A stretch of 64,000 bases of DNA from an uncultured Candidatus Saccharibacteria bacterium. Its GTDB lineage: Bacteria; Patescibacteriota; Minisyncoccia; Phycocordibacterales; Zambryskibacteraceae. Positions 7,605 to 19,178 of the stretch are shown here, one piece after another; position 1 is the stretch's first letter; each line of letters opens with the position of its first letter. The stretch is taken from assembly GCA_964509605.1 (NCBI GenBank), contig CAZDXF010000001.1, positions 8,276-72,275 on the forward strand, written 5' to 3'. The notes beneath the pieces are model-generated. The model did no database searches. It worked only from the letters and a program-made list of their open reading frames with translations, and was not told the origin of the DNA. The position numbers and the translations under genes were made by a program.

Positions 7605-7695
7605 TTGCCGGTTCGTCCCTCGGCCGTAGCTCGGAGGCCAAGGCCTACGGGCGGCTCACCCGTAGGGCTATGCCCGAGGGAGGCTAATGGTAGGA
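7605..7695 (+). repeat. duplicated 5' segment of tRNA-Gln (nt 1-23) split by a 67-nt GC-rich stem-loop (7618-7684)
   Basis: TTGCCGGTTCGTC (7605-7617) plus TAATGGTAGGA (7685-7695) equals 7946-7970 of the intact tRNA. The insert is CCTCGG...CCTACGGG-cggctca-CCCGTAGG...CCGAGG. Confidence 0.7.
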
Positions 7696-7944
7696 TATAT
7701 GCATTTTTTTGTTTATGTATTGAAAAGTGAAAAGGATAACAATTTTTATATTGGCTGTACTTCAAATTTGCAAAATAGACTTAAACAGCATTTATCTGGT
7801 AAAGTTCTTTCTACAAAAGCTCGATTACCATTAAAGCTTATATACAAAGAGTTTTTTATTGACAAGTATGAAGCGTATAGAGTTGAAAGATTTTATAAGA
7901 CCGCCGTTGGTAAGCGAGTTTTGAGAAAGAAGATAAACAAATAA
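7687..7944 (+). CDS. GIY-YIG nuclease, YhbQ/UPF0213-like (about 81-85 aa)
   Basis: FFVYVLKSEKDNNFYIGCTSNLQNRLKQHLSGK and YRVERFYKTAVGKR match the YhbQ-type GIY-YIG (URI) domain. An alternative ATG lies at 7699. Confidence 0.7.
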   Translation: MVGYMHFFVYVLKSEKDNNFYIGCTSNLQNRLKQHLSGKVLSTKARLPLKLIYKEFFIDKYEAYRVERFYKTAVGKRVLRKKINK

Positions 7945-7947
7945 AAT

Positions 7948-8018
7948 TGCCGGTTCGTCTAATGGTAGGACACCTCCCTTTGGAGGAGGCTATTGGGGTT
8001 CGAGTCCCTGACCGGCAG
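7948..8018 (+). tRNA. tRNA-Gln (anticodon TTG)
   Basis: Acceptor TGCCGGT/ACCGGCA with a U1:A72 pair and G73. Anticodon arm CCTCC-CTTTGGA-GGAGG. T-loop TTCGAGT. CCA is not encoded. Confidence 0.8.
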
Positions 8019-8194
8019 CAATGCAAAGTTTTGATAGCTTTTGCTATCTAAAACTTGCATACTGCCAGGTAGGAAGTGAATTTCTTCACTTCCGTTAGGA
8101 ACTCGAAAAGCGCAGTTATGTTTTGCTAACAAGCAAAACAGACGAGCTAGGGTCGTGAAATTTTGCGAGCGACGGCGAGCAAAATATTCCTGAC

Positions 8195-8213
8195 CGAGTC
8201 CCTGACCGGCAGC
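8195..8213 (+). repeat. 19-nt direct repeat of the tRNA-Gln 3' end (att-like remnant)
   Basis: CGAGTCCCTGACCGGCAGC at 8195-8213 is identical to 8001-8019. Confidence 0.7.
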
Positions 8214-8311: not shown

Positions 8312-8755
8312 ATGGCAGTTAAGAGGCTAAAAAATGGAGAATCAGGAAAAACTGGTGAACAGGACATAGTAAATCTTGTGCCTTGTCCAAATTGTTCAAA
8401 AAAGTTAATGGTTCTTCCGCCAAATTTTCCTCTCTACGATATTCAGTGTACTGGATGTCAGTTTCGTGCCCAAGTTAAAACAAATCGGTGTAAACCTAAG
8501 TCAATTTTATTTGGTGCGGGATGGCAAATCATGAATAAAGTTTTAAAATCTGGTTACATGACCCCACCGCTTTTTCTGAACTTTAAGTGGATAGAAAAGG
8601 GTCAACAAAAACAAGAGATAAGATTTTATCCATTTGTACCAAAGAAAAATCTATCAAACTACACACTTTCACCAACAGCTCGCAGGGCTAACTATGAAAT
8701 GTTTACTTATGTAGGAATGGATAAATTGCCGTATTTCTTGGTTTATGAAAAATAA
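8312..8755 (+). CDS. Zn-ribbon nuclease-like protein (possible DpnI/DRP-type PD-(D/E)xK core)
   Basis: CPNCSKK...PLYDIQCTGCQFRAQVKT parallels the DpnI catalytic segment CPNCG...VADFYCNHCSEEFELKSK, with D and xK conserved and Q in place of E. Confidence 0.3.
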   Translation: MAVKRLKNGESGKTGEQDIVNLVPCPNCSKKLMVLPPNFPLYDIQCTGCQFRAQVKTNRCKPKSILFGAGWQIMNKVLKSGYMTPPLFLNFKWIEKGQQKQEIRFYPFVPKKNLSNYTLSPTARRANYEMFTYVGMDKLPYFLVYEK

Positions 8756-9467
8756 TAATATTGAAAAAAGAGAATTTCCAGGCGTCTTAGAAGATATTTC
8801 GCCAAGACATTTAATTGATGAAAATAATAAAAATGACATCCAAAGCTTTTTCTTAATTTTAGGGCTTATATTTAACGATCTTAAGGGGTTGATCTTTTTT
8901 CAAAAATTTATCGAAGATAATTATAGAAAACCCGATATTAATGAAGTTTCAGCGCATGCTGGGGAATACGGAGGTTTAATTGCTCAAGCAGACAGGTTGC
9001 TTATAGCAACAGTTGGAGAGTTTTTTAAATTTATTGAAGAAAATACATCTGTTTTAAATAGCATATCTTTTTTACTGCTTCTTAAGAAGGATAATAACCA
9101 AGATTATAAAAATGCATGGAACGATCTTATAAAATTAGGTGATGGATCCACAGTTTTATCAAAGATCGCGAGAGTCAGGTCAAATGTGACATTTCATTAC
9201 GATAATTCTATGGAGGAATTAAGAAGGGGCTTTATAAATAGTTTTTTTACAAAAGAAAAAGATTTAACTCAGCATAGTCGGGCGTACTATTCTTTTGGGG
9301 ATGATATGGAAAAGACACGTATGTATTACTCAGATGCAGCCACGCAGAGTTATATAAATTCTATTCTAGCTATTGAAGATCGAGCTAAAATCAGAGAGGC
9401 CATAAACAGCATGAATCATACAATCCAATGGTTATTGAGAGTATATTTAAAGAATATCAAAAAGTAG
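8745..9467 (+). CDS. hypothetical protein (240 aa); weak Rx5H HEPN-like motifs
   Basis: No recognised domain. RSNVTFH and REAINSMNH motifs are present. Sits in the accessory island next to the RM genes. Confidence 0.3.
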   Translation: MKNNNIEKREFPGVLEDISPRHLIDENNKNDIQSFFLILGLIFNDLKGLIFFQKFIEDNYRKPDINEVSAHAGEYGGLIAQADRLLIATVGEFFKFIEENTSVLNSISFLLLLKKDNNQDYKNAWNDLIKLGDGSTVLSKIARVRSNVTFHYDNSMEELRRGFINSFFTKEKDLTQHSRAYYSFGDDMEKTRMYYSDAATQSYINSILAIEDRAKIREAINSMNHTIQWLLRVYLKNIKK

Positions 9468-9515
9468 CTCGAGATCTGCTGTTTAAGATACTAAAATTTA
9501 GCTAATTTCATTAAT

Positions 9516-9803
9516 ATGAATAACAAAGAGCAAAAGCAATTGCAAATCAGTTGGGTTCTCGTATGTCTTGGGTCTATTCTGGCGTTTTTTGTGAATATTG
9601 CTGCTAATTCTTTTTACGATATGTATTTTGTCGATGGTTTTAGAAAAAAATTTATTGTACCGTTTTTAGCGTTCTCTTTTATAAGTTTGTTCTTTGCCAA
9701 TTTTTTCTCCTATACTTTTGATCGTATAAGTGAGATAAAAAGCAACAATTACAGCTTTAAATCCTTTTTTTGGTCTTATATAAAGAGTTGGTTTAAAAAA
9801 TAA
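9516..9803 (+). CDS. small membrane protein (2 TM)
   Basis: Two hydrophobic helices over 95 aa. Confidence 0.35.
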   Translation: MNNKEQKQLQISWVLVCLGSILAFFVNIAANSFYDMYFVDGFRKKFIVPFLAFSFISLFFANFFSYTFDRISEIKSNNYSFKSFFWSYIKSWFKK

Positions 9804-9867
9804 TTCTAGACAATCATAGTTATCCACAATTCAAAGGTGAACTGTGGTTCACTTTTGAAGAAAAAGG

Positions 9868-11103
9868 GTGTATAATTTTTGTAGCATGAATGCGTTGCAA
9901 AAAAAGAAACAACTCGGCCAGTTTTTTACATCCAATTCAGATTATATTTTAAGTGGTTTAGAGAAATTTGTTTCTGGTAAAAAAGTTCAAGACCCCTTTG
10001 CCGGAGATGGAGACCTCCTTTTTTGGGCCAAGAGAAATGGGGCAAAAAAAATTTCTGGTTTTGATGTAGACAGACAACGCTTGAAATACAGATTTATCAT
10101 AGAAAACGATTCTCTGATAAATCCAGTTGGTTATAATTTTGTTATAACTAATCCTCCATATTTAAATGTAAACAAAAGTTCAAAGGACATAAAAGAAAAA
10201 TATTTTTCTAAATTCAAGGAATTTGAAGATCTTTATCAAATATCTGTTTTCAATATTTTAAATAGCGAAGAAGGAATAATAGTTTTACCAATTAATTTTT
10301 TATCTGCAAACAACGCAAAAAGGATTAGAAGATATTTTTTTTCTAAGTTTGAAATTGTAAAACTGAATTATTTTAAACATCAAGTGTTTGATGATACGAC
10401 ATATAATGTTGTTGCTTTTTACTACAGAAAACTGAAAATGCCCGTAAATAAAATTGAATTTCCAATGTTCATATATCCAGAATCAAAAAAAATAACTATA
10501 AAAATAGAAGAAAAATATGACTGGACTATTGGTGGCGACTTTTTACACAAAATAGAATTAACAAAGAACTCTCTTGGCATAAGAAGGTTGTTAGAAGACG
10601 ATGTGGAGTCTGGAAAAATCTCTTGCAAGACTGCTATCGGGCATTTAAAGAAAACAAAAAACATTAGTGTCTCCGAAGGCTTTATAAATCGAGTAAGAAA
10701 AAACATAATAATTTTAAAAGCTATTGATAGTGGTACAGAAAAAGGAAAGATTGCTTTGGAGGACATAAGATCTCATCAGATTGATGCTTTATTGAGCAAA
10801 GAATCGTCAAGACACATGATTCATCTAGTTTTTCCTGAATCGGTTTCTGTTTTTGATCAGGAATTGCTTATAAAACTTTTTAACAAACATTTTTCTGAGG
10901 CTAGAAAAAAATATTCTTCTCTTTTTCTTACTAACTATAGGGATAATGATAGAAAGAGAGTTCAGTTTGATTTTGTTTACAAGTTTTTGAACATGCTTTA
11001 TCTTGATAATATAAAACAAGTTCAGAATCGCTTGTTTGAGAATGTCTATGAATATCTGGATACAAAAAAGCCTAAAATTAGCCAATCAGTCAAATTATCT
11101 TGA
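9868..11103 (+). CDS. gamma-class N6-adenine DNA methyltransferase (Type II RM)
   Basis: Motif X GQFFT, motif I DPFAGDGDLL, motif IV ITNPPY. Confidence 0.8.
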   Translation: MYNFCSMNALQKKKQLGQFFTSNSDYILSGLEKFVSGKKVQDPFAGDGDLLFWAKRNGAKKISGFDVDRQRLKYRFIIENDSLINPVGYNFVITNPPYLNVNKSSKDIKEKYFSKFKEFEDLYQISVFNILNSEEGIIVLPINFLSANNAKRIRRYFFSKFEIVKLNYFKHQVFDDTTYNVVAFYYRKLKMPVNKIEFPMFIYPESKKITIKIEEKYDWTIGGDFLHKIELTKNSLGIRRLLEDDVESGKISCKTAIGHLKKTKNISVSEGFINRVRKNIIILKAIDSGTEKGKIALEDIRSHQIDALLSKESSRHMIHLVFPESVSVFDQELLIKLFNKHFSEARKKYSSLFLTNYRDNDRKRVQFDFVYKFLNMLYLDNIKQVQNRLFENVYEYLDTKKPKISQSVKLS

Positions 11104-11854
11104 TGCTCTGTCTGATATTTATCCAATTCAAGACAATAAAGAAGAGACTCGGTTAGAAAAAAATAGACTGCAGGAGATTAGAAAGGCCTTTAAAACAAAA
11201 GACCATAATAAATTATTGACTCTTCTTTTGGAAGAAGAAAGGTTTCCCTTTGACGATCCTTATGTAGCTTTTCTTCGGATGGACAAAACCTCTGTTTCTC
11301 GCAATCCGAAGACGGTAAGGAGATTATTGAGCAAGGTTTATTCTATTGGTTTAGATAATGTAATTAGCGGAATAAATAGACCAAAATCTTCTTCTAGGCA
11401 ATTTGGCAGTTATTTTAAAAATTGGATAACTCAAAATTTTCCCGTAGTTTCAGAAAAAGAGATCCTTGTTAAAAACAAAGGAGTTTTTGTACTAAGAGGC
11501 GGAGATGAATCTCTAAAGAAGTTTGTAAATAAAAACTTTGGAATTGGGCAAAGAAAAGGTTTAGATTTTGTTATGAAAATCAATAGTCATTATTTAATAG
11601 GGGAGGCTAAGTTTGTTTCTGCTTCTGGGGGAACGCAAGATAAAAGCATTAGAGAGACAATTACCTTTGTTAAAAAAACTAAAGGCAATGTCATTAGAGT
11701 TGCCGTTGTTGACGGAGTGATTTGGTTAGACAGAAAGAATAAAAGGGAAAAAAATCAGAGTCTGTATCAAGAGGTTATAAATTTAAAAGATGGTAGAAAC
11801 ATTATGAGCGCTCTATTGTTAAAAGATTTCGTAAACAGTTTAAAAAAGATTTAA
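11036..11854 (+). CDS. putative restriction endonuclease partner (PD-(D/E)xK-like)
   Basis: Overlaps the 3' end of the MTase gene. DFVMKINSHYLIGEAKFV is a D...E-A-K type motif. Confidence 0.45.
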   Translation: MRMSMNIWIQKSLKLANQSNYLDALSDIYPIQDNKEETRLEKNRLQEIRKAFKTKDHNKLLTLLLEEERFPFDDPYVAFLRMDKTSVSRNPKTVRRLLSKVYSIGLDNVISGINRPKSSSRQFGSYFKNWITQNFPVVSEKEILVKNKGVFVLRGGDESLKKFVNKNFGIGQRKGLDFVMKINSHYLIGEAKFVSASGGTQDKSIRETITFVKKTKGNVIRVAVVDGVIWLDRKNKREKNQSLYQEVINLKDGRNIMSALLLKDFVNSLKKI

Positions 11855-11864
11855 AATTATTATT

Positions 11865-12173
11865 ATGCAAACACAGCACATACTTTTTATATCAGCGGGT
11901 GTGATAGTGCTTTTAGCGATTTTTTCTTATTTTTTCCAAAAAAGAGCTGGTCTTGAGGTTTCAAAGGACTCAATTTCTAACCCAGTCCACCCTCAGATTA
12001 AATCTGACAACAGTTTATCAAGCCCTTTTTCTTTTGGTTTCAAATTTGGAGCCGGAATCTTTCCTTGGCTAGTGTTTTCTGGTCTAACAATCTTTTGGAT
12101 AATAGATGAATACTTTGACTACAAAATACAAAAATTTACAGAAGAAATGGTTAATATGTTTAATGGTTTATAA
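11865..12173 (+). CDS. small membrane protein
   Basis: Two TM helices. Confidence 0.35.
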   Translation: MQTQHILFISAGVIVLLAIFSYFFQKRAGLEVSKDSISNPVHPQIKSDNSLSSPFSFGFKFGAGIFPWLVFSGLTIFWIIDEYFDYKIQKFTEEMVNMFNGL

Positions 12174-12764: not shown

Positions 12765-13091
12765 ATGAGAATGGGCAAAATAGAGAAAGCAGATAAAACA
12801 ATTAAAATAAGCCAAGACAAAACAGGTAAAACACCAAAACAATTGGAAAGGTATTTTAAAGGTGTTGCTAACCACCGTAGAATCGCCATACTTTTGCTAG
12901 TACTTAAGGACCCAGGGATTTCGGTGGAGGGTATATCAGAAAACTTAAATTGTAATTTTAAAACAATTTCTGAACACACACGCAGATTAGTCCAAGCCGG
13001 CTTATTAAATAAAAACTACAAAGGAAACACAGTAGAGCATCGAGTGTCGCCCTACGGCAAGATGTTTTGCAATTTTATCGGAAAATTCTAA
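12765..13091 (+). CDS. ArsR/SmtB-family HTH transcriptional regulator
   Basis: HRRIAILLLVLKDPGISVEGISENLNCNFKTISEHTRRLVQAGLL is a winged HTH of ArsR type. Confidence 0.65.
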   Translation: MRMGKIEKADKTIKISQDKTGKTPKQLERYFKGVANHRRIAILLLVLKDPGISVEGISENLNCNFKTISEHTRRLVQAGLLNKNYKGNTVEHRVSPYGKMFCNFIGKF

Positions 13092-13092
13092 A

Positions 13093-13136
13093 CCAAAACT
13101 ACTCTGGTATTCTCAAGAATACCAGAGTAGTTTTGG
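13093..13136 (+). repeat. 44-bp near-perfect palindrome (21-bp arms, core ATTCTCAAGAAT); likely ArsR operator / repeat family member
   Basis: CCAAAACTACTCTGGTATTCT-CA-AGAATACCAGAGTAGTTTTGG. Confidence 0.7.
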
Positions 13137-13188
13137 GTGGGGTTAAGAAAGTTTAAATGTGGAAAGGTGGCAGAGGGCGGGGTGTATA

Positions 13189-13518
13189 ATGAAGTTATTA
13201 CAGTATTTTTGCCCAAAAACTATGAATTGGTTTAAAAAAATAATTGCACACTACAGAAACAATCCCGGAGGATATTGGTTTAAAAGAAATATTTATGGTT
13301 GGGGCTGGGTGCCGGTTATGTGGCAGGGTTGGCTTGTAACTATGATTTCTATAGCTTTTATTTCTGGGGGTATCTATATTGGAGAACGAGACGACGCGCC
13401 CGGAGTGGCACTTATAGGTATTTTACTTGGTGCCATGCTCGTATTTGGCTTTGGTCATTGGAAAGGAGAAAAGATGTGCTGGCAGTGGGGCTTGCCAAAA
13501 GAAGAAAAAGATAATTAA
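13189..13518 (+). CDS. membrane protein
   Basis: Hydrophobic helices. ATG at 13189 directly follows TATAAT at 13183-13188 and could be leaderless. Confidence 0.35.
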   Translation: MKLLQYFCPKTMNWFKKIIAHYRNNPGGYWFKRNIYGWGWVPVMWQGWLVTMISIAFISGGIYIGERDDAPGVALIGILLGAMLVFGFGHWKGEKMCWQWGLPKEEKDN

Positions 13519-13531
13519 GAAAAATGAAGTT

Positions 13532-14002
13532 ATGACATCATACAAACATACACAAATTGGATATTTGATGCTGACAGTCCTGTTTTTCTTGTTAGTATTT
13601 TTTGGATGGATTCAAATTTCGGCTCGAGCCGAACCTCCGTCGGTAGACTCTGGTGCAAATTTTGTCGTTACAGCAGTAATGGTGCTGGTTCTACTTATTC
13701 TTCTGTCATTTGCAACACTAAAAGTGTCTATTGACGAAAAATATTTGAGAATAAAGTTTGGATACGGAATCTTTCATAAAAAATTTGTATTGAATGATAT
13801 TGCTTCAGTAGAAAGAGTCAAAAATCACTGGTATTACGGCTGGGGCATAAGATTGTGGTTGTGGCCAAAGATGTGGATTTACAATGTTTCTGGTTTTGAT
13901 GCGGTTGAAATCAAGACCAAAAACGGAAAAATCTATCGTGTTGGTACGGATGAACCAATTAAGCTTGAGTCCGCAATTAAGTCAGTGATAGTCTTAAAAT
14001 AG
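13532..14002 (+). CDS. membrane protein with bacterial PH-like (YdbT/bPH_2-like) C-terminal domain
   Basis: Two TM helices, then a beta-rich region ending KIYRVGTDEPIKLESAIK. Start chosen at the internal ATG of ORF 13427. Confidence 0.4.
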   Translation: MTSYKHTQIGYLMLTVLFFLLVFFGWIQISARAEPPSVDSGANFVVTAVMVLVLLILLSFATLKVSIDEKYLRIKFGYGIFHKKFVLNDIASVERVKNHWYYGWGIRLWLWPKMWIYNVSGFDAVEIKTKNGKIYRVGTDEPIKLESAIKSVIVLK

Positions 14003-14058
14003 TCATAGTTAATGATTTGTTCAACATTTTCTTAGTAAATTTACCGAAACATTGAGTA

Positions 14059-14418
14059 ATGAAAGACGAGAAAAATCATAAAATTTACACAATGCCATTT
14101 GCCAGAGTGTATCCAATGTATATTGCCAAAGTGGAAAGGAAGGGTCGTACAAAAGAAGAAGTGGATGAAATTATTAATTGGTTGACCGGCTATAGTAGAA
14201 AAGAATTAGAGGCTCAAATCAAAAAAGAAACCGATTTCAAAACTTTCTTCAAAGAAGCGCCGAAAATGAATCCAAAACGAAAGCTCATCACTGGTGTTAT
14301 ATGTGGAGTCCGGATTGAAGATATTAAAGAGAAAACAATGCGTGAAATTCGCTATTTAGATAAATTGATTGATGAGCTTGCTAGAGGTAGGGCGATGGAG
14401 AAAATTTTGAGAAACTAA
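14059..14418 (+). CDS. DUF2200-family protein
   Basis: [38 protein letters not shown] is characteristic of DUF2200. Confidence 0.5.
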
Positions 14419-14469
14419 ACTTTTTTCCTTTTTAGATAATCCACAGGTCTGGTACTTGCAATATACCCT

Positions 14470-14766
14470 ATGGGGGTATATAATGCTTTTATTATGAAAA
14501 CAGATTTAAAAAACAAGCTTGTAAGCCGTCTAAATCGCATAGAGGGTCAGGTGAGAGGTATAAAGAAAATGGTTGATGATGAAAAATATTGTGTGGATAT
14601 CATTACTCAGGCTCAAGCAATCAAAAGTGCCCTAAGTTCATTTGAGACGCTAATGCTCCAAAACCATTTGGAGACTCATGTAATGCACCAGATGAGTCAT
14701 GGTAAAGGGGAAAAAGCAATTAAGGAGATACTCAAAATTTATAATGTGTCTCAAAAGAAAAAATAA
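14470..14766 (+). CDS. csoR: CsoR/RcnR-family metal-sensing repressor
   Basis: LVSRLNRIEGQVRGIKKMVDDEKYCVDIITQ, plus conserved Cys/His positions. Confidence 0.7.
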   Translation: MGVYNAFIMKTDLKNKLVSRLNRIEGQVRGIKKMVDDEKYCVDIITQAQAIKSALSSFETLMLQNHLETHVMHQMSHGKGEKAIKEILKIYNVSQKKK

Positions 14767-14767
14767 A

Positions 14768-16786
14768 ATGGATCATAGTCATTGCCACAGTCATAGTGAC
14801 ATAAAAACACAAAACCACGACAAGCACGAAGGTCATAGTGCTTCAATGTTTCTAAAAAAGTTTTGGTTAAGCTTCGCTTTGACCATACCTGTAGTTTTGT
14901 ATTCAGATATAGTTGAAACAGTTTTTAAATGGTCTCCTCCTCAATTTTTCGGATCTGATTATTTGTCTTTCGTACTGGGAACTATTGTATTTTTTTATGG
15001 CGGTTGGGTATTCATCAAAGGGGCGTGGAAAGAGATAAAAGCAAGGTTGCCAGGTATGATGACTTTGATTGGTGTTGCTATATCAGCTGCCTATCTATGG
15101 AGCATTTACGCTGTTTTTTCAGGTGACGAAACTTTGTTCTGGGAGCTTACCACTCTTATAACCATAATGCTTTTTGGTCATTATTTGGAAATGCGTGCTG
15201 TCTCTAATGTTCAGGGTGCTCTTAAAGAACTGTCAAAGTTATTGCCTGATACAGCAGAAGTTTTTCGCAACAACAAAACAGAAACAGTATCGCTTTCCGT
15301 GCTACAAGAAGGAGATTTGGTTTTAGTAAGACCGGGTGGAAAAATTCCAGCTGATGGGGAAATTGTAGACGGTTTCTCAGATGTTGATGAGTCTATGATT
15401 ACGGGAGAATCTAATCCTATTTCTAAAAATGTTGGTGACTCTGTAATTGCGGGAACAATAAACGGTGATGGTGCTCTTAAAATAAAAGTAGCAAATATAG
15501 GCGAAAAAACTTTTTTAGCTGGAGTTATGCGCTTGGTAGCAGAGGCCCAGTCTTCAAAATCTAGATTACAAATTTTGTCTGACAGGGCGGCTCTTTATCT
15601 CACTATTTTAGCTGTTGGCGGAGGTATTATTACTTTAATGTCGTGGCTCTTGGCTGGCTCAGAAGTTGGTTTTGCTGTTTCCAGACTTGTCGCGGTTCTG
15701 GTTATTGCTTGTCCTCATGCTCTGGGTTTGGCTGTGCCTTTGGTTGCGTCAATCTCAACCACTAAAGCGGCTCAAAATGGTTTTCTTGTAAAACAAAGAA
15801 TTGCATTGGAAGTAGCCAGAAGTATTGATACGGTTCTTTTTGATAAAACAGGAACGCTGACCAAGGGAGAGTTTGGAGTTGTAAACATATGGAGTAGCAA
15901 GAGCTACAAAGAAGAAGATGTTTTAAAACTTGCCGCATCACTCGATTCTCTTTCTGAGCATCCGATTGCTAAAGCGATAGTAAACAAAGCTTTAGAAAAA
16001 AATATAAAGCTTTTAAAGCCAGAAAATTTTGAAGCCATAAAGGGCAGGGGCGTAAAAGCGACTGTAGATTCAAAAGAAGTTTATGTCGGAGGACCGTCTT
16101 TAATTGAAAGTTTCAATATAAATTTGTCAGATGAAATTGAAAATCAAGTAGCTCTTGCTGGCAAGAAGGGACAAACAGTTGTTTTTGTCATTGAAAAAGG
16201 CGCACTTGTTGGAGCTATTGCACTGGCTGATATCATTCGCGAAGAATCAAAAGATGCTTTGAAAAAACTCAGATCAATGGGTATTGAAACCGCCATGATA
16301 ACGGGGGATTCGGAAGATGTGGCTAGGTGGGTGAGTGAAGAACTGGGAATTGATATGTATTTTGCCAGAGTTTTACCTGGAGAAAAATCTGAAAAAGTAA
16401 AAGAATTGCAAAAACAAAATAAAAAAGTAGCTATGGTTGGTGACGGTATCAATGACGCCCCGGCTCTTACTCAAGCGGATCTTGGAATCGCCGTTGGAGC
16501 AGGAACAAATGTTGCAATTGAATCGGCGGGAATTATCCTGGTTCGCAATGACCCGAAAGATATTGTGAAAATATTACAGCTCTCTCAGATGACATACAGT
16601 AAAATGATTCAAAATTTGTTCTGGGCCACTGGCTACAATGTGGTGGCGATGCCTTTGGCGGCCGGTGCCATGGCATTTAAAGGCGTTATTCTCGAACCAG
16701 CTGTTGCTGCTGTGCTCATGTCTTTAAGCACGATTATTGTTGCTTTTAATGCAGTCCTTTTAAAAAGGAAACGGTTGGGGCAATAA
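14768..16786 (+). CDS. copB: P1B-type heavy-metal (copper) translocating ATPase, CopB-like (CPH motif, His-rich N-terminus)
   Basis: MDHSHCHSHSD, TGES, CPH in TM6, DKTGTLT, GDGINDAP. Start reassigned to ATG 14768 after the csoR stop. Confidence 0.85.
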   Translation: MDHSHCHSHSDIKTQNHDKHEGHSASMFLKKFWLSFALTIPVVLYSDIVETVFKWSPPQFFGSDYLSFVLGTIVFFYGGWVFIKGAWKEIKARLPGMMTLIGVAISAAYLWSIYAVFSGDETLFWELTTLITIMLFGHYLEMRAVSNVQGALKELSKLLPDTAEVFRNNKTETVSLSVLQEGDLVLVRPGGKIPADGEIVDGFSDVDESMITGESNPISKNVGDSVIAGTINGDGALKIKVANIGEKTFLAGVMRLVAEAQSSKSRLQILSDRAALYLTILAVGGGIITLMSWLLAGSEVGFAVSRLVAVLVIACPHALGLAVPLVASISTTKAAQNGFLVKQRIALEVARSIDTVLFDKTGTLTKGEFGVVNIWSSKSYKEEDVLKLAASLDSLSEHPIAKAIVNKALEKNIKLLKPENFEAIKGRGVKATVDSKEVYVGGPSLIESFNINLSDEIENQVALAGKKGQTVVFVIEKGALVGAIALADIIREESKDALKKLRSMGIETAMITGDSEDVARWVSEELGIDMYFARVLPGEKSEKVKELQKQNKKVAMVGDGINDAPALTQADLGIAVGAGTNVAIESAGIILVRNDPKDIVKILQLSQMTYSKMIQNLFWATGYNVVAMPLAAGAMAFKGVILEPAVAAVLMSLSTIIVAFNAVLLKRKRLGQ

Positions 16787-16811
16787 ATTATTAAAAAATT
16801 AGATTAAAAAT

Positions 16812-17423
16812 ATGAATAAAGAAAAAATTATTATAGGAATTCTCGGTTTAATTTTAGGCATTCTCATTGCGCCTGTATTTCTGCCTGCGATGCCGTGGGG
16901 CAGGCAAATGATGTATAGCGGTGGTTCAATGATGAACCAAAATATGAGTCAAAATATCGACAGGCACTTTATAGAGGAAATGATTCCCCATCATGAAGGA
17001 GCTATAGCAATGGCGGAGCTTGCTCTTGAGAGATCTAAGCGCCCTGAAATTCTTTCTTTGGCCAATGGAATAATTGACGCTCAAAAAAGAGAAAATGAGG
17101 AGATGAGAAACTGGTTTAGAGAATGGTTTGGTGGTGAACCAAGCAATTCTTCAAGCATGGGTGGAATGATGGGGCACGGCGCCATGGGAATGCATATGGT
17201 TGGAATGGAGGGCGACCTAGAAGAACTGAAGTCTGCAGAAGATTTTGATCTCGAGTTTATATCTCAGATGATTCCTCACCATGAAATGGCAATTATGATG
17301 GCCAGAATGCTTTCGGCCAGTACTGAAAGACAAGAGATGAAGACTTTGGCTCAAAATATTATTACTTCACAATCGAGAGAGATTCAAATGATGAATAGTT
17401 GGTATGAAGCTTGGTCAAAATAA
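16812..17423 (+). CDS. DUF305 family protein (copper-resistance associated)
   Basis: Duplicated FIEEMIPHHEGAI and FISQMIPHHEMAI DUF305 repeats. Confidence 0.6.
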   Translation: MNKEKIIIGILGLILGILIAPVFLPAMPWGRQMMYSGGSMMNQNMSQNIDRHFIEEMIPHHEGAIAMAELALERSKRPEILSLANGIIDAQKRENEEMRNWFREWFGGEPSNSSSMGGMMGHGAMGMHMVGMEGDLEELKSAEDFDLEFISQMIPHHEMAIMMARMLSASTERQEMKTLAQNIITSQSREIQMMNSWYEAWSK

Positions 17424-17904
17424 AAATATGAAAAAAGATTATAGTAAAAAAATTTTTTACGCCCTCACTTTTATTTTAGTTGTTGCTGTTTCTTTGATGA
17501 TTTTTATCCCGGAAAAAGAAGTTAATACAGAAAATCAGCTGTCGGCAATGATGTACAAGACTCCCACTTGTGGCTGTTGCAAAGTATACGGGCAGTATTT
17601 AGAGCGTGAAAATGTAAAATTGACAGTGGTGGATATGGATGATATTTCGCCAATCAAAGAACAACACGGGATTCCAAGAAATCTAGAAAGTTGTCATACA
17701 ACAATGATTGAGGGTTATGTAGTTGAGGGGCATATACCACTAGCCGTGATAGAAAAACTCCTTGCAGAAAAACCAGATATAAGAGGTATTGCTTTGCCAG
17801 GGATGCCATCTGGTTCTCCAGGTATGCCAGGACCGAAAACTGAGGATTGGACGATATATGCTTTGGGTAAAGACGGTACAATAACAGAATTTATGAAATA
17901 CTAG
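17404..17904 (+). CDS. DUF411 family metal-binding protein
   Basis: CGCC...ESCHTT...MPSGSPGMPG. Adjacent to copB. Confidence 0.6.
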   Translation: MKLGQNKNMKKDYSKKIFYALTFILVVAVSLMIFIPEKEVNTENQLSAMMYKTPTCGCCKVYGQYLERENVKLTVVDMDDISPIKEQHGIPRNLESCHTTMIEGYVVEGHIPLAVIEKLLAEKPDIRGIALPGMPSGSPGMPGPKTEDWTIYALGKDGTITEFMKY

Positions 17905-18417
17905 ATGAAAAGATTAATTCCGGTATCGATAATTGTTTTTTTGCCAAAGCTAGCATTGGCTCACTGTCCTCTTTGCACGGTTGGAGCAGGAGCACTAGCT
18001 GTTTTCGCTGCTTCAATAGGGATTTCTTCAATGGTTGTGGGAGTGATGATAGGCGGGTTCGCTCTTGCTTTATCTACGTGGTTAGCAAGATTACCTAAGA
18101 AAAATTACATACCATACCAGCGCTTTGTTCTTGCTCTAGTTGTGTTTATTGGAACCATTGTTCCTATAATGCCACTTGCAAAAGAATATGGCCCTCTTTA
18201 TGTGCGAGTGTTTGGTGAGTATGGAGGGGTCTTCCACAATACATACACGGTAAATCTATTTTTGGCCGGATCAATCATTGGTGCTTTACTTATGTTGGTT
18301 GGTCCGTATTTGAGTAAGCAACTTACAAAAATCCGAGGAAGTACACTTCCATTTCAAGGTATCAGCATATCGCTACTTCTTCTTATTGTTGCTTCTCTAA
18401 TAATTGAAATGGTCTAA
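17905..18417 (+). CDS. membrane protein with HCPLC motif
   Basis: Four TM helices; Cys pair in the first helix. Confidence 0.35.
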   Translation: MKRLIPVSIIVFLPKLALAHCPLCTVGAGALAVFAASIGISSMVVGVMIGGFALALSTWLARLPKKNYIPYQRFVLALVVFIGTIVPIMPLAKEYGPLYVRVFGEYGGVFHNTYTVNLFLAGSIIGALLMLVGPYLSKQLTKIRGSTLPFQGISISLLLLIVASLIIEMV

Positions 18418-18842
18418 TGAACCCAACACTATTGTTTCTAATCATATTTTTTGTTGGTGCCATAATTTTTCAAAAAATTTTTAAGAAAAATTTTTGCGCC
18501 ATGTGTGTATCAGTTACGCTAACTTGGCTAACACTGTTGGTTTTTTATTTTCCTGCCAAGATAGACGCTTTGATTTTAGGAATTCTTATGGGGGGTAGCG
18601 CCGTCGGTCTTGTATATTATCTTTTTAGATCTAACGGTAGTTTTCAAATTTTTAAATTTCCGTTTCTCATATCACTATTCTGGTTGATTTATATTTTTCT
18701 TGGAGATAGTCAGGGTTGGATTAAGGATTTTGTCATTGTGGCTGGCGTATGGATTTTATTCATAACGATATTTGTGTTTAATAAGAATGAGTATCTAAGA
18801 GATTGGGGACAGAAAATTATAGAATGCTGTAAAAATTGGTAG
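18417..18842 (+). CDS. membrane protein
   Basis: Four TM helices; start overlaps the upstream stop. Confidence 0.35.
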   Translation: MNPTLLFLIIFFVGAIIFQKIFKKNFCAMCVSVTLTWLTLLVFYFPAKIDALILGILMGGSAVGLVYYLFRSNGSFQIFKFPFLISLFWLIYIFLGDSQGWIKDFVIVAGVWILFITIFVFNKNEYLRDWGQKIIECCKNW

Positions 18843-18887
18843 TATTTCAACTACTGCTTATTTTTAATCTGGTTTTTACGGTAAATT

Positions 18888-19178
18888 GTGTATAATTTCT
18901 TTAATATGCAAATTAAAAATGTTAAAAAAATTGCTCTAGGCACATTAGCTTTATTTTTGATTCCTCTCATTGCTATGCAGTTTGTAGATGGAATGGTCTG
19001 GACTCTTTCTGATTTTGTAATAATGGGTTTGCTTATCTTTATGGTCGGCCTTTTACTTGATTGGGCGATGAGAAAAGAAGGTCGAGCTAGAGTTTTTACT
19101 GTGGCGGTGATAATTCTACTTTTCCTTTGGCTGTGGGCAGAGCTTGCTGTGGGTATTTTTACAAATTGGGGTAGTTAA
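18888..19178 (+). CDS. small membrane protein
   Basis: Three hydrophobic helices. Confidence 0.3.
   Translation: MYNFFNMQIKNVKKIALGTLALFLIPLIAMQFVDGMVWTLSDFVIMGLLIFMVGLLLDWAMRKEGRARVFTVAVIILLFLWLWAELAVGIFTNWGS

Follow-up and report, generated by a model that had tools for sequence, protein, structure and literature searches.

We analyzed a 64-kb window (i.e., the whole stretch of DNA under study) from a contig of a metagenome-assembled genome affiliated with the Patescibacteria (candidate phyla radiation; Paceibacteria-type), and focus here on the segment of this window that extends from a tRNA-Gln gene to approximately 12.2 kb. The segment encodes a homolog of the catalytic domain of DpnI (denoted A), a member of a helical protein family (B), a Type II restriction-modification (RM) pair comprising a methyltransferase (M) and an endonuclease (R), and two small open reading frames (ORFs; C and D). 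All positions refer to the window, and all ORFs discussed are on the plus strand. Five ORFs that an earlier note on this DNA had delimited are present on that strand, and the motifs that it had singled out (GQFFT, DPFAGDGD, NPPY, CPNC, D-x-C-x2-C, and QVK) are all present in their translations. Collectively, our observations suggest, with a probability of approximately 0.75, that the segment is a mosaic of independent, separately inherited defense-type genes that are neighbors by chance, rather than one system. The features of the segment, with activities as predicted, are as follows (aa, amino acids):

7948-8019, plus strand: tRNA-Gln (anticodon TTG), the upstream anchor of a variable flank (ARAGORN; Rfam tRNA, 55.5 bits)
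8020-8213, plus strand: non-coding spacer with a strong fold that ends in a repeat of the tRNA-Gln 3' end (minimum free energy compared to shuffled sequences; blastn)
8312-8755, plus strand: gene A, 147 aa, a stand-alone homolog of the DpnI catalytic domain (Pfam PF06044, PADLOC, AlphaFold2/Foldseek, family alignment)
8745-9467, plus strand: gene B, 240 aa, from an all-alpha family with R145-x5-H151; candidate HEPN-like defense-island gene (family search, AlphaFold2, neighborhoods)
9516-9803, plus strand: ORF C, 95 aa, a putative gene for a peptide with two predicted transmembrane segments (two hydrophobic segments)
9848-9876, plus strand: sigma-70-like promoter match (TTCACT-17-TATAAT, 10 of 12 matches; weak evidence)
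9886-11103, plus strand: gene M, 405 aa, gamma-class N6-adenine DNA methyltransferase (Pfam, PADLOC, motifs)
11042-11854, plus strand: gene R, 270 aa, Tsp45I-family Type II restriction endonuclease (Pfam, PADLOC)
11865-12173, plus strand: ORF D, 102 aa, two predicted transmembrane segments, low GC content; the variable segment probably ends with this gene

Loci that encode homologs of B were fetched from genomes (n = 24), from metagenomes (n = 51), and through exact-protein look-ups of close B homologs (n = 7; L030-L036). Clustering of these loci and the window locus at 95% identity of B yielded 59 groups, which leaves 58 non-redundant loci besides the window. Searches with A, C, M, R, and D (tblastn) yielded no match in any of these 58 loci, and B was absent from all five other genomic contexts of A that were examined. 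Alignments of the window to its relatives (blastn) span 8338-8755 (A) or 8745-9496 (B) only, and end at gene borders. Since the tblastn searches were negative, homology ends at gene borders, and C has no homolog among 5.8 billion proteins beyond itself, an A-B-C module is not conserved in the loci examined. The earlier note had suggested that the genes starting at 8312, 8745, and 9516 could form an uncharacterized multi-gene defense module; the examination of whether the three genes are co-conserved came out against this. A larger unit, in which A, B, C, M, and R travel as one system, was also rejected, with tblastn against all fetched loci recovering only B.

The GC content of genes B through D (8745 to ~12170) ranges from 0.29 to 0.33 (0.29-0.32 from B to R and 0.333 in D), compared to 0.379 +/- 0.044 for the long ORFs of the window; that of A (0.354) is within the normal range of the window. 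In the mosaic that we propose, M and R would be a self-contained RM cassette within a variable flank, and A would be a one-domain DpnI relative drawn from a family that is found in many Paceibacteria-type Patescibacteria. B would be a gene that lodges beside tRNA and tmRNA genes or immediately 3' of defense genes of many kinds, and its product may act as a HEPN-like ribonuclease of the abortive-infection or toxin type. The analysis establishes the families to which A, M, and R belong, the absence of co-conservation, and the pattern of B neighborhoods, whereas all biochemical activities are predictions. We conclude that A happens to lie between tRNA-Gln and B in this window. Weighing against this reading, the ATG of B sits inside the 3' end of A, and the resulting overlap of 11 nucleotides (nt) could mean translational coupling, making a local functional link between A and B possible.

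Gene B had no match in Pfam, PADLOC, NCBIfam, PHROGs, PDB sequence profiles, the PDB as searched with Foldseek, or BFVD, and none of 22 aligned family members matched anything in Pfam even at E values of up to 10. The family is nonetheless sizeable: a word-seeded search recovered 45 clusters and a full profile search (E <= 1e-3) recovered 977 representatives, with members nearly all 230-270 aa in length. No homologs were identified in the viral, phage, and plasmid collections IMG/VR, INPHARED, and PLSDB. The AlphaFold2 model of B (mean local confidence [pLDDT] of 88.1; predicted TM-score [pTM] of 0.83) comprises helices only. Among 141 members that share 21-45% identity with B of the window, R145 and H151 are 100% conserved. 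These residues are the only fully invariant polar residues of B and account for two of only three invariant alignment columns, and they frame a conserved Rx4-6H motif (R145-S-N-V-T-F-H151). Residues N44, D45, K47, E92, W125, R192, and D197 are near-invariant in the same 141 members. The earlier note had described a 240-aa protein with Rx5H motifs; only one such motif, R145-H151, is conserved.

Two properties expected of HEPN ribonucleases, the Rx4-6H motif and (in the AlphaFold2 model) an all-alpha fold, were thus found in B. Because the R-x5-H pair is the only universally invariant polar pair, we infer that B is a HEPN-like ribonuclease effector, an assignment that is tentative and that we would put somewhat short of even odds. 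B further resembles HEPN ribonucleases in its location in defense islands beside RM systems, helicase-nucleases, and defense reverse transcriptases (RTs). Anantharaman and colleagues are said to have described, in 2013, HEPN proteins as stand-alone or RM-embedded ribonucleases that include AbiV, DUF4145 (in type I RM operons), and PrrC/RloC.

Several observations speak against a HEPN assignment. B has no detectable profile (Pfam, PDB sequences) or Foldseek similarity to established HEPN families. In the AlphaFold2 model, the arginine of the motif occupies the C-terminal end of its helix, with the histidine in a loop, a placement that differs from the usual position of the motif in HEPN proteins. 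Moreover, the additional conserved residues (i.e., N44, D45, and K47 in an N-D-x-K arrangement, E92, W125, R192, and D197) are not HEPN hallmarks. The strongest alternative is that B is not an enzyme of the HEPN type and instead serves as a regulator with a helical fold, as a protein that confers immunity or counteracts a toxin, or as an effector whose fold is new. In its favor, B resembles neither HEPN proteins nor anything else in sequence or fold, and many polar residues other than the R/H pair are conserved. We regard this alternative as a serious one that nevertheless falls below an even chance, given that R145 and H151 are the sole fully invariant polar residues, that their spacing is that of an Rx4-6H motif, and that the fold is all-alpha. 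An immunity protein would also be expected to be specific to one type of partner, which B is not.

A further argument for a distant relationship to HEPN comes from RTs of the UG19 group, which have been reported to carry an uncharacterized domain that is very distantly homologous to HEPN, either fused to the RT or, with UG19-small RTs, as a co-located gene ('cluster 1465'; Mestre et al., 2022; PMC9226505). In one locus (L083), a B homolog overlaps the stop codon of an RT_UG19 gene. In the window, as in most loci, B stands without an RT partner. The B family is probably this unnamed UG19 RT partner.

To judge from its sequence and modeled structure, gene A is a true homolog of the catalytic domain of DpnI. 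It matches the Pfam family DpnI (PF06044) with an E value of 5.3e-7 and a score of 29.9 bits (cut-off, 26.7) over profile positions 31-151 of 183, and it matches the PADLOC model mREase_II (E = 4.5e-4). Residues 22-128 of A align with residues 34-141 of the 257-residue DpnI chain (phmmer). The three best PDB matches of its AlphaFold2 model (pLDDT of 81) in Foldseek were the DpnI structures 4kyw_A, 4esj_B, and 4esj_A, with E values from 3.9e-7 to 2e-4, query TM-scores (TMq) of 0.63-0.75, and a probability of 1.0 (4kyw_A: E = 3.9e-7, TM-score of 0.75). The earlier note had aligned this 147-aa protein to the catalytic segment of DpnI/DRP-type nucleases and had made its proposal depend on nuclease-fold similarity in a profile search; such similarity was found, in Pfam above the cut-off and in Foldseek to 4kyw and 4esj, and its assignment is upheld.

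An alignment of 20 members of the A family revealed invariant residues C25, C28, C46, C49, E16, D43, Q54, K56, L119, R125, and Y128. The cysteines form a zinc site of two CxxC pairs (C25/C28 and C46/C49), as in the PD-(D/E)XK catalytic fold of this group. The active site of DpnI comprises E25, D53, E64, and K66 (PMC3424567), which correspond to E16, D43, Q54, and K56 of A. The full catalytic set of DpnI is therefore not found in A, with a glutamine at the position of E64 in all 20 aligned members. The methyl-adenine pocket of DpnI comprises L129, R135, and W138 (PMC4117772), which correspond to L119, R125, and Y128 of A; histidine or tyrosine occupies the position of W138 in a number of DpnI homologs, and such variants are partly active (PMC4117772). 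The winged-helix domain, which is the C-terminal reader of N6-methyladenine in DpnI and recognizes Gm6ATC independently, is absent from A: the alignment stops at DpnI residue 141 and A ends at residue 147. Thus, A shares with the DpnI/Dam-replacing family (type IIM) the catalytic fold, the zinc-binding CxxC pairs, the helix glutamate, the aspartate and lysine, and leucine, arginine, and aromatic residues at the positions of the methyl pocket, but is a one-domain protein with glutamine in place of catalytic Glu64 in every member examined and with tyrosine in place of Trp138. The most likely ligand of A is adenine-methylated DNA, which A would also cut if its active site tolerates Gln54.

The A family comprises at least 1,239 clusters of proteins of approximately 143-148 aa, the best 120 of which are 70-90% identical to A. 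Among the matches listed, nearly all are 138-157 aa in length and one is 191 aa, and some members carry the NCBI label 'DpnI domain-containing protein'. In the five other contexts that were examined, A homologs adjoin a type I RM system, separate dnaJ (dnaJ/rpoB) from a Cas4-like nuclease gene, or are located 3' of parAB (parAB/topA), of a pseudouridine synthase gene (rluD), or of ftsEX. Because these five contexts all differ, we consider A to be a stand-alone gene that may approach core-gene status in this lineage. In several loci with A homologs (L026-L028 and L088-L091), the next gene downstream often encodes a small nuclease (PDDEXK_1 in L028 and HNH in L091), and a GIY-YIG gene is located two genes 3' of the A homolog in L088; the 3' flank of the conserved A gene may itself be an insertion hotspot.

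The breadth and uniformity of the A family also bear on a second alternative, in which A is not a defense gene but encodes a conserved factor with a housekeeping role in DNA binding or repair in the Paceibacteria, one that was derived from a DpnI-like nuclease and whose cleavage has been weakened or lost. Restriction enzymes usually have a patchy distribution, whereas the A family is a very tightly conserved clade across the Patescibacteria, and this degree of conservation fits housekeeping better than defense. The contexts with parAB/topA, rluD, ftsEX, and dnaJ/rpoB and the genome-typical GC content of A point in the same direction, and the invariant Q54 at the position of catalytic E64 may abolish cleavage. 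Conversely, the zinc ribbon, E16, D43, K56, and the residues of the methyl pocket are all retained, and one of the contexts adjoins a type I RM system. Likewise against this alternative, PD-(D/E)XK enzymes of the Cfr10I/NgoMIV type are active in the absence of a canonical second acidic residue. We consider a housekeeping role to be rather unlikely, if far from negligible. A one-domain DpnI relative with a Glu-to-Gln substitution that is conserved over very many Patescibacteria goes somewhat beyond routine annotation. Patescibacteria live on other cells and, to our knowledge, largely lack CRISPR. If A still recognizes adenine-methylated DNA, it could provide a lineage-wide means to tell foreign or host-cell DNA from self.

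The neighborhoods of B homologs differ markedly between loci. The gene directly upstream on the same strand is often a defense gene, and genes at this position include those for AlwI, HsdR, MmeI, an Mrr-helicase (type IIG/ISP), a C5 methylase, and Nhi/AbiO-like helicases, and those for RT_UG13b (PADLOC E = 4e-127), RT_UG19 (L083; PADLOC E = 1.7e-171), PDC-S18, HNH, DUF2726, NucS-like, T5orf172, and Cas4-like nuclease proteins. One B homolog that is 83% identical to B of the window is located behind an AlwI endonuclease, its methyltransferase, and a serine recombinase, and among the closest orthologs as a group (72-83% identity), the preceding genes are those of an AlwI RM system or of a Schlafen-type helicase, or there is no partner at all. 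B is also found behind housekeeping genes, namely those for serine hydroxymethyltransferase, SmpB (with tmRNA), pterin dehydratase, and LysE. In five loci (L006, L012, L023, L037, and L072), B directly follows a tRNA gene or a tmRNA gene and lacks a partner on its strand, which suggests that B lodges at tRNA/tmRNA-proximal sites as a single gene. In four loci (L006 4872-5976, L012 7909-8756, L023 5607-6523, and L072 1128-2208), B starts no more than 150 nt past tmRNA, tRNA-Ile, tRNA-Ala, or tRNA-Ala/Ser. We conclude that B is an autonomous single-gene cassette of defense islets.

Recurrent associations of B were limited. An all-against-all comparison of B neighbors (blastp) yielded small recurrent groups only (the Schlafen-type helicase, the UG RTs, and a few unknowns), and a conserved partner for B was rejected on that basis. 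One recurrent neighbor is a 530-680-aa protein (L002 5931-7970, L035 3925-5979, L043 869-2458, and L080 982-2583) that PADLOC scores as Nhi/AbiO-like. It joins an N-terminal GIY-YIG domain to a helicase of Schlafen group 3 (DUF2075), and in a subset of loci it also has an S24 (LexA-like) peptidase at the C terminus. The B homolog is always 3' of the gene for this protein, and a MazG-like gene is 5' of it in two loci. In L083 (2410-6414), RT_UG19 is followed by the B homolog with a 4-nt overlap and then by a PDC-S02 PD-(D/E)XK protein. In L019 (6518-9560), the order is tRNA-Asn, RT_UG13b, the B homolog, and a 257-aa unknown protein that recurs 3' of B in L074.

These neighborhoods allow for a third alternative, in which B is a generic add-on to the upstream nuclease, helicase, or RT (e.g., a latent toxin that is freed when its partner is inhibited, by analogy to PrrC and EcoprrI), such that A and B would form a two-gene system. 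Among annotated neighbors, defense-type genes made up 18 of 32 upstream compared to 4 of 22 downstream (Fisher p = 0.010), so that RM and nuclease defense genes are enriched upstream and not downstream, although the upstream count is biased because larger neighbors were chosen for the third Pfam batch. The same count supports our own view of B as a defense-island gene. Schlafen/Nhi-like helicases recur with B homologs that are 72-76% and 34% identical to B of the window, UG13b/UG19 RTs recur with homologs that are 29-38% identical, and starts and stops of B and its neighbor overlap in the window, L018, and L083. However, same-strand adjacency is weak evidence for an operon because these genomes have a strong strand bias and tight spacing, a point that tempers our own reading of the neighborhoods as well. 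Furthermore, B is located behind housekeeping genes or alone after tRNA genes, close B orthologs swap partners freely, and members of the A family normally occur in the absence of B. We consider a generic add-on of this kind to be unlikely.

More speculative still, and a long way from being favored, is the possibility that B represents a new defense-effector family (approximately 1,000 clusters at 50% identity, mostly from Patescibacteria), either as a very divergent HEPN ribonuclease or as a new fold with an R/H active site. By analogy, such a family could serve as a portable backup toxin on nuclease, helicase, and RT immune genes, much as PrrC guards EcoprrI, and islets near tRNA and tmRNA genes could be where it inserts as it spreads in the form of a single-gene cassette. 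The weakest alternative, in which A, B, and C make up a single uncharacterized defense system and the adjacent M and R a classical RM system, can draw on the shared strand, tight packing, and A/B overlap, on a nuclease-like A next to a B from a defense-associated family, and on the best promoter-like site separating A-B-C from M-R, but it is largely refuted and very improbable, since co-occurrence is lacking in the 58 other B loci and the five A contexts, homology breaks at gene borders, C is an orphan, and B occurs alone next to tRNA and tmRNA genes. The mosaic of separately inherited genes thus remains our preferred reading of the segment. Within it, the B family, whose members no domain, defense, or structure library recognizes, is a well-defined candidate for defense screening and the main part of the locus that merits follow-up, with the Gln-variant DpnI family meriting it to a lesser degree.

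The flank of tRNA-Gln is itself variable. In L037, a B homolog that is 80% identical to B of the window follows tRNA-Gln(ttg) after 60 nt, and other genes intervene between tRNA-Gln and B in L003 and L014. Gene content at this flank therefore varies among relatives, and the composition of the segment deviates from that of the window, and we conclude that this lineage has a variable site next to tRNA-Gln. An exact 18-19-bp copy of the 3' end of tRNA-Gln is present at 8195/8196-8213 (19 bp by blastn). This sequence occurs twice in the window compared to 0.01 occurrences expected by chance, and the copy is located 177 bp 3' of tRNA-Gln, upstream of gene A and not beyond the gene cluster. ORFs between 7.6 and 12.6 kb had no match to integrase families in Pfam. 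A classical tRNA-integrated island was rejected as an explanation for the gene cluster, with the sole repeat of the tRNA 3' end preceding the genes and no integrase matched. The earlier note's accessory island 3' of tRNA-Gln is consequently retained as far as the variable flank (L037, L003, and L014) and low GC content are concerned, whereas a distal repeat of the tRNA 3' end and an integrase match are missing.

The spacer between tRNA-Gln and the end of the repeat (8020-8213; 194 nt) has a predicted minimum free energy of -84.8 kcal/mol, compared to -47.3 +/- 3.8 kcal/mol for shuffled sequences (z = -9.8), and folds into several near-perfect hairpins. In its outermost helix, CUGCC near the 5' end pairs with GGCAG within the repeated tRNA 3' end, resembling an acceptor stem. 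The spacer had no match in Rfam, and no further copy was detected in the window or the fetched loci (blastn). The spacer may be what is left of a decayed integration event, or an uncharacterized structured RNA. On the other side of the tRNA, the initial 13 nt of tRNA-Gln (TTGCCGGTTCGTC) are repeated at 7605 and are followed by a GC-rich insert of 67 nt (7618-7684), after which come the next bases of the tRNA (TAATGGTAGGA). The interval that separates this 5' fragment of the tRNA from the complete tRNA-Gln holds a small gene for a GIY-YIG nuclease (7687-7944; Pfam E = 9e-16). By its sequence, 7605-7947 looks like a nuclease cassette that was inserted in the tRNA gene, with the tRNA restored.

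M and R are an ordinary, self-contained Type II RM pair of the kind that is assigned by routine annotation, which agrees with the proposal of the earlier note that the methyltransferase and the overlapping endonuclease ORF form such a pair. R matches the Pfam family Tsp45I (PF06300) over the whole of its profile (positions 1-260 of 260; E = 1.1e-62) and the PADLOC model REase_II (E = 6.5e-48). M matches Eco57I (E = 3.8e-8) and N6_Mtase (E = 3.7e-5) in Pfam in addition to PADLOC MTase_II models, and the order of its motifs (GQFFT, then DPFAGDGD as motif I, then NPPY as motif IV) is that of gamma-class N6-adenine methyltransferases; no match to M was found in the PDB. The two genes are on the same strand and overlap by 62 nt. 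M would protect host sites through N6-adenine methylation and R would cut sites that are unmodified. Alternative start codons were identified for both genes: a GTG at 9868 (411 aa) in M, for which the ATG at 9886 (405 aa) is used in the gene calls of an identical public Logan/NCBI contig, and a TTG at 11036 (272 aa) in R, for which the same gene calls use the ATG at 11042 (270 aa). The best promoter-like site of the region is directly upstream of M (9848-9876). A scan of the region for promoters and terminators yielded match totals that were no higher than the shuffled expectation.

A homolog that is 33% identical to R is encoded on a Campylobacter plasmid, where it is annotated as a type II endonuclease and adjoins a methyltransferase with no relation to M. 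Because this endonuclease homolog is paired with a methyltransferase that is unrelated to M, the methyltransferase partner is interchangeable in the Tsp45I family. As a candidate recognition sequence, GTSAC is only mildly depleted in the window (26 sites compared to 36.7 expected under a Markov model or 79 under a zero-order model), and GTWAC is equally or more depleted. Site avoidance was rejected as a guide to specificity, as the depletion of GTSAC is modest and not distinctive. ACGT is very strongly under-represented in the 64-kb window (11 observed compared to 72.7 expected under a Markov model), and GCNGC (35 compared to ~88 expected) and TCGA (74 compared to 134 expected) are also depleted. 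This hints at other restriction systems that act on the genome or acted on its ancestors.

The remaining ORFs are small. The product of C has two hydrophobic segments (residues 8-34 and 45-66), as the earlier note had recognized in describing a peptide with two transmembrane segments 3' of the 240-aa gene; it had no family matches, and C is an orphan ORF. Hydrophobic segments are also present in D (residues 1-26 and 61-81), which had no family matches and no homolog in any fetched locus. Directly 3' of the cluster, 12765-19000 (L001 4559-10972) encodes an HTH_5 regulator, a DUF2200 protein, a CsoR-type repressor (Trns_repr_metal), a P-type ATPase, and DUF305 and DUF411 proteins. This region looks like a metal (copper) homeostasis cluster and may be another accessory segment.

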